Shown piece by piece: positions 55,801 through 58,800 of a DNA stretch of 64,000 nucleotides. Each line of letters opens with the position of its first letter. Position 1 is the first letter of the stretch. Made by a program: the position numbers. This stretch comes from Escherichia coli (GTDB taxonomy: Bacteria > Pseudomonadota > Gammaproteobacteria > Enterobacterales > Enterobacteriaceae): the NCBI RefSeq assembly GCF_044647545.1, contig NZ_CP172818.1; one strand, written 5' to 3'.

Positions 55801-58800
55801 GGCTCTGGTACTGTTTGCCTGGCTGATTGTTGGTGGTGGTGCGATTAACTATGTGATTCAAAGCGTCATCGCATAAACCACTACATCTTGCTCCTGTTAA
55901 CCCGCTATCATTACCGTTTTCCTCCAGCGGGTTTAACAGGAGTCCTCGCATGAAATACATTGGAGCGCACGTTAGTGCTGCTGGCGGTCTGGCAAATGCC
56001 GCAATTCGCGCCGCCGAAATCGACGCAACCGCGTTTGCCTTGTTCACCAAAAACCAACGTCAGTGGCGTGCCGCACCGCTCACGACGCAAACCATCGATG
56101 AATTCAAAGCCGCCTGTGAAAAATATCACTACACATCGGCGCAAATTCTTCCCCACGACAGTTATCTGATTAACCTCGGACATCCGGTCACTGAAGCTCT
56201 GGAAAAATCGCGCGATGCCTTTATAGATGAAATGCAGCGTTGCGAACAGCTGGGGCTTTCTTTGCTCAACTTCCACCCTGGCAGCCATCTGATGCAGATT
56301 TCAGAAGAGGATTGCCTTGCGCGTATTGCCGAATCCATCAACATTGCGCTGGATAAAACTCATGGTGTGACAGCGGTGATTGAAAACACCGCCGGTCAGG
56401 GCAGTAACTTAGGGTTTAAATTCGAACATCTCGCGGCGATTATCGACGGCGTGGAAGATAAATCCCGCGTCGGCGTCTGCATTGATACCTGCCATGCTTT
56501 CGCTGCCGGGTATGATTTGCGTACTTCTGCCGAATGCGAGAAAACGTTCGCGGATTTTGCCCGTATTGTCGGCTTTAAGTATCTGCGCGGGATGCACCTT
56601 AACGATGCGAAAAGCACCTTTGGCAGCCGCGTTGACCGCCATCATAGCCTCGGTGAAGGCAATATCGGTCATGATGCGTTCCGCTGGATCATGCAGGACG
56701 ACCGTTTCGACGGAATTCCGCTGATCCTTGAAACCATCAACCCGGATATCTGGGCAGAAGAGATCGCCTGGCTGAAAGCGCAACAAACTGAAAAAGCGGT
56801 AGCCTGAAGATGAATAACCGGGAGAAGGAGATCCTTGCAATATTAAGGCGTAACCCGCTGATTCAGCAGAACGAAATTGCGGATATGCTGCAAATCAGCC
56901 GTTCGCGTGTTGCAGCGCATATTATGGATTTAATGCGCAAAGGACGGATTAAAGGCAAAGGTTACATTCTCACCGAGCAGGAATACTGCGTAGTGGTGGG
57001 GACAATCAATATGGATATTCGCGGGATGGCGGATATCCGTTACCCGCAAGCGGCTTCTCATCCCGGTACCATTCATTGCTCGGCAGGCGGCGTTGGACGC
57101 AATATCGCCCACAATCTGGCGCTGTTAGGCCGCGACGTTCATTTGCTTTCAGTGATTGGCGATGACTTTTATGGCGAAATGCTCCTGGAAGAAACGCGCC
57201 GCGCCGGCGTGAATGTCTCCGGCTGCGTTCGTTTACATGGTCAAAGCACATCGACGTATCTGGCAATTGCCAATCGAGACGATCAAACCGTGCTGGCGAT
57301 TAACGATACCCATCTGCTGGATCAGTTGACACCGCAACTACTGAACGGGTCGCGCGATTTACTTCGTCATGCGGGCGTGGTACTGGCAGATTGTAACCTG
57401 ACAGCCGAGGCGCTGGAATGGGTCTTTACCCTCGCTGATGAAATCCCGGTGTTTGTCGATACCGTTTCAGAATTCAAAGCGGGCAAAATCAAACACTGGC
57501 TGGCGCATATTCACACCCTGAAACCCACTTTACCGGAGCTGGAAATTTTATGGGGACAGGCGATCACCAGCGATGCTGACCGTAATGCCGCAGTGAATGC
57601 ATTACATCAGCAAGGTGTTCAGCAACTGTTTGTTTATTTGCCCGATGAGTCAGTTTATTGCAGCGAAAAGGATGGAGAACAATTTTTGCTGACCGCACCA
57701 GCGCATACGACAGTAGACAGTTTTGGTGCTGACGATGGTTTTATGGCGGGTCTGGTATATAGCTTTCTGGAGGGAAACAATTTCCGTGACAGCGCCCGTT
57801 TTGCGATGGCCTGCGCAGCAATTTCACGCGCCAGCGGCAGCTTAAACAACCCTACCCTGTCTGCCGATAACGCGCTTTCATTAGTGCCGATGGTGTAACA
57901 ATGTTGCCGGATTCGACGCTTGACCGCGTCTTATCCGGCTCATAACTCGCGCACTACGCTAAACCAATAAAGAACCCGGCAATGGTGGCACTCATCAGGT
58001 TAGAAAGTGTCGCCGCCGCCAGCGCGCGTAAACCAAGCTGGGCGATTTCCGGCGCACGGTGTGGCGCAACCGCAGAAAACGCCCCCACCACCACCCCGAT
58101 AGAACCAAAGTTAGCGAAACCGCACAACGCGAAGGAAATAATCGCCACGGTTTTAGCATCCAGAGTGCCAGCTGTTTGCAGATAAGGTGAGAAATTGAGG
58201 TAAGCGACAAATTCATTTATTGCCAGTTTCTGTCCAATCAAACTCCCGGCAAGATTCGCATCACTCCAGTCAACACCCATTACCCACGCCAGTGGGGCCA
58301 GCAGGTAACCTAAAATGGACTCCAGCGAGGCATGTTCAAAACCAAACCAGCCGCCAACGCCGCCGATAATACCGTTAATCAACGCAATTATTGCAACAAA
58401 TGCCATCACCACTGTCGCCACACCTGCGGCGATTTTCAGCCCGGTCATTGCCCCTGTCGCAGCGGCTTCAATAATGCTTTTTGGCGGTGTTTCGGTGAAA
58501 GAGAGGTTATTAAAGGAAACCTGCGAAGATTCCGTGGCCGGACTTAACAGGCGAGCAAATAAGATCCCGCCAGGGATCGCCATTAACGATGCCGCCAGCA
58601 AATATTCCACAGGTACGCCCAGTGCGGCGTAACCAATCATTGTCGAACCAGCAATCGAGGCCATGCCACTACAAATCGCTGTAAATAATTCATTGCGATT
58701 CAGCCGATCGATAAAGGGTTTGACGATTGCCGGAATTTCGTTTTGCCCGAGGAAAATGGTAGTGACCGCGACGAATGACTCGATCTTGCTGATATTTAAT

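Follow-up and report, generated by a model that had tools for sequence, protein, structure and literature searches.

Between yeiH and nfo, two plus-strand genes in a 64-kb stretch of Escherichia coli DNA, lies a gap of 73 bp that contains a long inverted repeat. Throughout, "the window" means the whole of that stretch, and coordinates are window positions. The repeat follows the yeiH stop codon (TAA, 55874-55876) and extends over the ribosome-binding site of nfo, the gene for endonuclease IV. A sequence-only reading of this DNA had pointed out the repeat and had proposed that it could serve either as a terminator for yeiH or as a translational gate for nfo. Here we describe the hairpin, its conservation in related bacteria and a predicted promoter nested within it. 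From sequence comparison we suggest that it acts in plus-strand RNA as an insulator against read-through from yeiH into nfo, a reading to which we give about an even chance.

The hairpin between yeiH and nfo

A repeat search recovered both halves of the inverted repeat, and the plus strand folds into a stem of 16 Watson-Crick pairs that closes a 19-nt loop; a single U of the UUU run at 55932-55934 is bulged out. G55890 and U55943 could add a 17th pair. The repeat reported earlier is thus real in both sequence and fold, and so is the placement of the nfo Shine-Dalgarno (SD) motif in its 3' arm: AGGAG lies 7 nt ahead of the nfo ATG, wholly within the stem. Changing the 5'-arm segment GTTAACCC to CAATTGGG would break the pairing, and changing the 3'-arm segment GGGTTTAAC to CCAATTTTG would be the compensatory change that spares AGGAG. 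Positions of all features, including those of the predicted promoter discussed below, are given in Table 1.

Table 1 Window positions of the hairpin, the predicted nfo promoter and the flanking genes
Feature	Positions	Strand	Sequence	Basis or remark
Hairpin 5' arm	55891-55906	+	CTCCTGTTAACCCGCT	repeat search, fold, covariation with 3' arm
Hairpin loop (19 nt)	55907-55925	+	ATCATTACCGTTTTCCTCC	sequence and fold
Hairpin 3' arm	55926-55942	+	AGCGGGTTTAACAGGAG	repeat search, fold, covariation with 5' arm
nfo Shine-Dalgarno	55938-55942	+	AGGAG	wholly within stem; 7-nt spacer to ATG
Predicted nfo -10 hexamer	55906-55911	+	TATCAT	first T is the last 5'-arm base, the rest lies in the loop
Candidate soxbox/marbox	55868-55887	+	ATCGCATAAACCACTACATC	overlaps last yeiH codon and stop; centre 55877.5
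Predicted SoxS-dependent nfo start site	55916-55919	+		inferred; about 2250806-2250809 in NC_000913.3
yeiH coding sequence	54827-55876	+		inner membrane protein, PF03601; open reading frame list and annotation in E. coli genomes
nfo coding sequence	55950-56807	+		endonuclease IV, PF01261; ATG at 55950

Fold prediction bore out a stable hairpin: the plus-strand RNA folds at -25.8 kcal/mol, compared with -11.5 ± 2.7 kcal/mol for 200 dinucleotide shuffles (z = -5.3), one of which folds as well. When the whole window was scanned with a sliding 60-nt frame (mean -12.5 kcal/mol, s.d. 4.6), however, the hairpin ranked only about 23rd among distinct loci by minimum free energy, and we therefore dropped stability as proof that it is not random. 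Its above-chance status rests on conservation with compensatory changes, not on energy. The strongest 60-nt folds of the window, both on the plus strand, lie at 34466-34525 (-38.2 kcal/mol) and 34581-34640 (-30.7 kcal/mol). Both greatly exceed the nfo hairpin in stability and may represent repetitive extragenic palindromic (REP)-type elements or terminators.

The 271-nt region around the hairpin occurs at one place each in 5,425 of 5,426 complete E. coli genomes (at least 95% identity), and the hairpin arm has a single match within the window. The region is core chromosome and not a repeat, and its single copy led us to reject identity with a REP element or bacterial interspersed mosaic element (BIME), an enterobacterial repetitive intergenic consensus (ERIC) sequence or a miniature inverted-repeat transposable element (MITE). 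A scan of 55000-57000 against Rfam 15 (E ≤ 10) returned two chance-level matches, both elsewhere, and matched no riboswitch, thermometer or other family at the hairpin.

Conservation and covariation in Enterobacteriaceae

We compared 80 Enterobacterales nfo loci together with four added by protein look-ups (Salmonella, Scandinavium, Entomohabitans and a Kluyvera-like contig). Synteny of yeiH and nfo is kept across most of Enterobacterales. The hairpin was found in the 35 Enterobacteriaceae sequences examined, E. coli included. They represent Escherichia, Salmonella, Citrobacter, Enterobacter, Leclercia, Lelliottia, Kosakonia, Pluralibacter, Pseudocitrobacter, Phytobacter, Cedecea, Shimwellia, Scandinavium and others, all of them Enterobacteriaceae sensu stricto. 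A covariance model built from these sequences matched only the plus strand, directly upstream of nfo, within Enterobacteriaceae, and gave no match in Yersinia, Serratia, Pantoea, Erwinia, Photorhabdus and similar genera.

The arms change together. When 31 sequences were aligned with MAFFT, blind to structure, 84.8% of cells form standard pairs, and this share falls to 33-54% once the 3' partner is shifted by 1-3 columns; changes on both sides were seen in 8 of the 16 pairs, and 0 of 500 column shuffles matched the observed values. A model-fitted alignment of 34 sequences gave similar figures (85.1% of cells pairing, 10 of 16 pairs doubly changed). Individual compensatory changes include GTCAAAC/GTTTGAC in Shimwellia, ACCCGG/CCGGGT in Enterobacter ENT03, AGACCC/GGGTCT in Kosakonia and CTGTA/TACAG in Bisph1. 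In Entomohabitans the entire outer helix has been swapped for ATCTCT/AGAGAT, over a different SD (GGAGAG). The most conserved part of the stem is the GC-rich inner helix, ACCCGC/GCGGGU, followed by UUU. Structure, conservation and covariation are thereby established, and on this comparative evidence the hairpin is real, selected and conserved.

The distance between the arms is much freer. The loop measures 12-51 nt in relatives, with the arms persisting, and in the Kluyvera-like contig (L084) both arms are kept around a loop insertion of ~135 nt (approximately 1139-1270), whose core, GAATCCCCGGCGCGTAAAGAAGTACGTGACGGGGTGAGTGAAGC, resembles the ERIC/IRU repeat. Two Yersinia and one Pectobacterium (L036, L050 and L040) have ERIC-like ends of a similar kind ahead of nfo.

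These patterns bear on whether the repeat acts in RNA or in DNA. At the DNA level a dimeric regulator could bind the repeat as an operator with two half-sites, or the repeat could form a cruciform that arises under supercoiling and sequesters the nfo -10; we regard either as very improbable. Although the arms are symmetric about the predicted -10 and start site, a spacing that varies from 12 to 51 nt, and reaches ~150 nt in L084, is unfit for a fixed operator or for easy cruciform extrusion. The minus strand folds about as well as the plus strand (-27.1 kcal/mol) and the A-C mismatches of the outer helix would be G-U pairs on that strand; the inner helix, however, has 27 G-U cells and no A-C cells, which points to plus-strand RNA, and as G-T these 27 cells would mismatch in DNA. 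The arms also change by compensatory substitution and are not kept as a motif. Because the spacing varies and the inner helix carries G-U cells, we favour a plus-strand RNA over a protein operator or cruciform.

One clade departs from the general design. In Citrobacter and Kluyvera the 3' outer arm has been deleted together with the SD, and the 5' outer arm is no longer conserved. In sequence comparison this loss, a single evolutionary event, supports the view that the 5' outer arm is constrained by pairing and not by promoter function.

A predicted promoter nested in the hairpin

The hairpin loop holds a promoter-like -10 hexamer that the sequence-only reading had overlooked. Across 31 Enterobacteriaceae sequences, the only invariant residues between the arms are T-A-T-n-n-T, right after ACCCGC; the hexamer occurs as TATCAT, TATGAT, TATACT and TATTAT. 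Judged from the alignment, residues conserved in this way are typical of a sigma-70 -10 hexamer.

nfo is a classic, established gene of the SoxRS regulon. For decades its promoter has served as a model target of SoxS, MarA and Rob, and SoxS binding at the site described below is expected from this regulon membership. Regulon membership is also recorded in PMC2989944, and genomic SELEX found RNA polymerase holoenzyme binding within the yeiH>nfo spacer. A candidate soxbox overlaps the end of yeiH and fits 12 of the 14 specified positions of the consensus AYNGCACNNWNNRYYAAAYN, as quoted in PMC2064960. A relaxed soxbox pattern, set post hoc and weak as evidence, had its sole match in the window at this site (0.18 expected). 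The alignment keeps the soxbox-like site and the -10 at a constant separation, which is 18 bp in E. coli. At class II SoxS promoters the soxbox is centred at -41.5 and overlaps a poor -35 (PMC9638938), and the spacing of the putative SoxS site and the -10 at nfo suggests the same geometry. It yields two estimates of the transcription start site (TSS): the seventh nucleotide after the -10 is 55918, and the soxbox centre plus 41.5 is 55919, 8 nt past the hexamer.

With a start in the loop, the 5' arm would be promoter spacer DNA, at about -28 to -13, and the 3' arm would form +8 to +24 of the nfo mRNA. Because the predicted TSS lies in the loop, the 5' arm should be missing from SoxS-initiated nfo mRNA. 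A conserved pyrimidine run, TTTCCTCC, occupies the 3' end of the loop (55917-55925; TTTCCCCC in most relatives) and would supply the first nucleotides of this mRNA; in E. coli it includes an anti-SD-like CCUCC.

Published papers searched for the nfo promoter or its marbox yielded statements of a general kind only. The Cappable-seq and SMRT-Cappable-seq supplements gave no match for an nfo start or a yeiH 3' end. Kim 2012 places the yeiH TSS 17 nt upstream of its ATG and gives none for nfo in E. coli, and its available part shows no Klebsiella entry. A consensus promoter scan found no promoter-like hexamers upstream of the 5' arm. We set aside as probably spurious a promoter-like TTAACA-17-TACATT at 55933-55961 (+), which has its -35 in the hairpin 3' arm and its -10 in the first nfo codons and would start transcription inside nfo.

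The predicted accessibility of the SD depends strongly on where the RNA begins. Opening AGGAG costs 11.0 kcal/mol in RNA that reads through from yeiH, where the motif is unpaired with probability 0.001; if the RNA starts at 55916-55919, the corresponding values are 2.75 kcal/mol and 0.64. Among the 35 Enterobacteriaceae sequences, the region from -15 to -5 costs a median of 8 kcal/mol more to open in the read-through isoform, and in 32 of them the penalty exceeds 3 kcal/mol, so that the ribosome-binding region is occluded. The cost depends on the upstream sequence: its mean is 11.8 kcal/mol as observed and 4.7 kcal/mol with the upstream part shuffled. The observed value was the higher in 33 of 34 sequences and lay above all 15 shuffles in 23 of 34. 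Outside Enterobacteriaceae the difference is not consistent, with a median of 3.1 kcal/mol and 14 of 28 sequences above 3 kcal/mol. We accordingly did not extend the element beyond the family, even though some Serratia, Pectobacterium and Yersinia have pairings that flank the promoter.

We also considered coupling of the hairpin to translation of yeiH. A terminating ribosome covers roughly 12 nt, and melting of the stem by the terminating yeiH ribosome is unlikely because 14 nt separate the stop codon from the first paired base.

Insulation, gating or termination

These observations suggest the following scheme for an insulator. RNA polymerase would continue from yeiH into nfo, because Escherichia and its relatives lack a canonical terminator after yeiH. 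On the long yeiH RNA the two arms would pair and bury the nfo SD, leaving nfo untranslated from yeiH-driven transcripts, and the untranslated nfo segment would presumably be exposed to Rho and to decay. The stem would at the same time cap the yeiH message, and 3' trimming back to it is plausible. A SoxS-dependent promoter would sit within the same element, with its soxbox over the yeiH stop, the 5' arm as its spacer and its -10 and TSS in the loop. SoxS-initiated mRNA would start past the 5' arm, form no hairpin and present an open ribosome-binding site.

The translational gate proposed earlier stands in part. The stem does occlude the nfo SD, and the occlusion is conserved across Enterobacteriaceae; the proposal had, however, placed the hairpin on nfo's own mRNA, and the comparative evidence puts the -10 and TSS in the loop. 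Because they are predicted to sit there, a gate would act only on RNA started upstream. For nfo to gate itself, its TSS would have to lie upstream of 55891, with the SD masked until a temperature, small RNA or protein signal arrives. A conserved stem over the SD fits such a mechanism, as does the low basal expression of nfo, and no direct TSS data speak against it. We nevertheless consider it improbable: the promoter scan was empty upstream of the 5' arm, the sole invariant loop residues are a TATnnT correctly spaced from the soxbox-like site, Rfam offered no riboswitch or thermometer, and a stem costing 11 kcal/mol to open would hinder rapid induction of a SoxS regulon gene.

The other earlier proposal, a yeiH terminator, fares differently in different relatives. 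In its broader form, the hairpin would be mainly a terminator or a 3'-protecting stem for yeiH; its cover of the SD would be incidental, and loop-started RNA would escape it for want of the 5' arm. The terminator scan found no other terminator between yeiH and nfo in Escherichia and relatives, and the GC-rich inner helix with its adjacent UUU, the most conserved part of the stem, also counts in favour of one. At least five T occur in the 8 nt past the stem in 12 of 34 sequences; three or fewer do so in 15 of 34, and in E. coli the tail is UCCUCGCA (2 of 8). The loop, at 19 nt (12-51 nt in relatives), compares with 3-8 nt in typical intrinsic terminators, and a consensus terminator scan found nothing at the hairpin. 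Term-seq in three conditions (Adams 2021; PMC7815308) placed no 3' end in 2244773-2263539, its tables having none at 22507xx-22508xx and no yeiH or nfo entry, although low yeiH expression could hide one. On account of the long loop, the T-poor tail and the missing scan hit and Term-seq end, the hairpin is unlikely to be a conventional terminator in E. coli.

The Citrobacter/Kluyvera clade carries a form that resembles a terminator, with a stem of 13-14 bp, a loop of 9-15 nt, then UUUAAUUUAU, and no SD. At four of its loci (L005:1427-1503, L007:1122-1198, L012:1421-1503 and L014:1426-1503) the inner stem is extended to ACCCGCTATACTC/GAGTATGGCGGGT and followed by UUUAAUUUAUG, a terminator-like arrangement; there the -10, TATACT, lies inside the 5' arm and nfo has no obvious SD.

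In Enterobacterales other than Enterobacteriaceae, yeiH commonly ends in a canonical terminator at that place. A GC stem with a T-run lies ~60-110 nt upstream of nfo at L042, L061, L067, L037, L041, L046 and L051, and these loci share a near-invariant extended -10, TGcCATAAT, 31 nt ahead of the nfo ATG. In Serratia oryzae (L046) and Pectobacterium (L034) an inverted repeat flanks this -10 and reaches the SD. Serratia oryzae thus has a canonical terminator as well as a hairpin that flanks the -10 and covers the SD, which argues against termination as the hairpin's main role. Taken together, we judge a mainly terminating or 3'-protecting role unlikely, while giving it some weight.

Several points weigh against an insulator. 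Its chief uncertainty is the predicted TSS, which comparison places in the loop: no experimental nfo TSS turned up in the literature searched, and nfo has no entry in published TSS sets, which come from unstressed cells. The soxbox motif is low in information, and its GCATAA part is constrained by yeiH coding as well. The yeiH-nfo read-through RNA is one that we infer, and yeiH is weakly expressed, with 13 reads at its TSS in Kim 2012. Because the species compared are related, shuffle and Wilcoxon figures overstate independence, and the events counted are not independent of one another. Only in the inner helix does the strand test give a clear answer; in the outer one A-C cells (~19) outnumber G-U cells (~10). 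Selection may have acted partly or wholly on termination or 3'-end protection, given that the Citrobacter clade keeps the inner hairpin without AGGAG and that T-rich tails recur elsewhere in the sample. Finally, we know of no advantage that would select for protecting nfo from transcription of yeiH.

Downstream, the nfo stop codon (56805-56807) and the yeiI ATG (56810) are 2 nt apart. Kim 2012 assigns yeiI a TSS inside nfo, at about 56552 (+) in the window, 258 nt upstream of yeiI, and yeiI may be expressed both by read-through from nfo and from this internal promoter.

Related systems and implications

The nearest parallels come from insertion sequences (IS). In IS10 and IS50, transcripts that enter from outside fold so as to cover the ribosome-binding site. 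The transcript from the element's own promoter begins within the structure and is translatable. Fold-back inhibition in IS10 (Tn10) was reportedly described by Davis, Simons and Kleckner in 1985, and the protection of IS50 (Tn5) from external promoters is said to have been described by Krebs and Reznikoff in 1986 and by Schulz and Reznikoff in 1991. At nfo, too, the ribosome-binding region finds its pairing partner upstream of the predicted TSS. The SD of the gene to be protected lies in the stem, with AGGAG fully paired, and the loop TATnnT and the soxbox spacing predict a TSS downstream of the 5' arm. Unlike these elements, the nfo hairpin lies between two chromosomal housekeeping or stress genes and not at the end of a mobile element, its internal promoter would depend on an activator, SoxS, and its fold-back action is a prediction.

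The left end of IS200 likewise joins shielding from upstream transcription to an SD-sequestering hairpin: it carries a terminator against impinging transcription and a stem-loop over the SD (PMC4513863). In IS200, however, the stem sits in the 5' untranslated region of the transposase mRNA and a separate terminator handles read-through, whereas at nfo a single hairpin would do the shielding and is predicted to be missing from nfo's own mRNA. A looser likeness is to lambda sib, where the full hairpin also depends on the promoter from which the transcript comes, giving promoter-specific expression of the same gene. The sib element lies downstream of int and acts by RNase III cleavage and 3' decay, not by SD occlusion. 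RNase III sites need near-perfect double-stranded RNA over about two helical turns, or at least 20 bp. The nfo stem is short for such a substrate: it has 16-17 bp and a bulge in E. coli, and only 13 bp in the Enterobacter cloacae group. None of IS10, IS50, IS200 and lambda sib shares sequence with the nfo arms.

Like intrinsic terminators, the hairpin is a GC-containing stem right after a gene that has no other terminator, with a T-rich tail in some relatives; it differs from them in E. coli by its 19-nt loop, the absence of a U-tract and its overlap with the downstream promoter and SD. The predicted promoter resembles class II SoxS/MarA/Rob promoters such as micF and fumC, having a soxbox-like 20-mer 18 bp upstream of a good -10 and a poor -35, but promoters of that class are not known to have an inverted repeat around the -10.

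The literature we searched, which did not include the 1988 nfo sequence paper or the SoxS footprinting papers of the 1990s, holds no description of the nfo hairpin, and the older literature may mention the repeat. The principle of insulation is itself already known from insertion sequences, so that the nfo design is neat and not unprecedented. If the insulator is confirmed, a mechanism of insertion sequences would be carried into ordinary chromosomal regulation with clear comparative support, and nfo expression would be set by where the transcript starts as well as by SoxS. This would bear on nfo reporter fusions, on RNA-seq and operon calls that merge yeiH and nfo, and on how tightly packed same-strand genes can be regulated independently without terminators. 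The practical consequence is modest, because it concerns one locus and a known principle.

A wider idea, which we put forward only tentatively and think rather doubtful, is that of a promoter inside a hairpin as a module, in which the same 75 bp at yeiH-nfo serve three purposes: to end the functional yeiH message, to make read-through RNA untranslatable for nfo, and to release a fully translatable nfo mRNA only upon firing of the internal promoter by SoxS. If such a design were general, stress-regulon genes just downstream of unrelated genes might often be insulated in this way instead of by terminators, and enterobacterial chromosomes would contain an unrecognised class of compact intergenic insulators.

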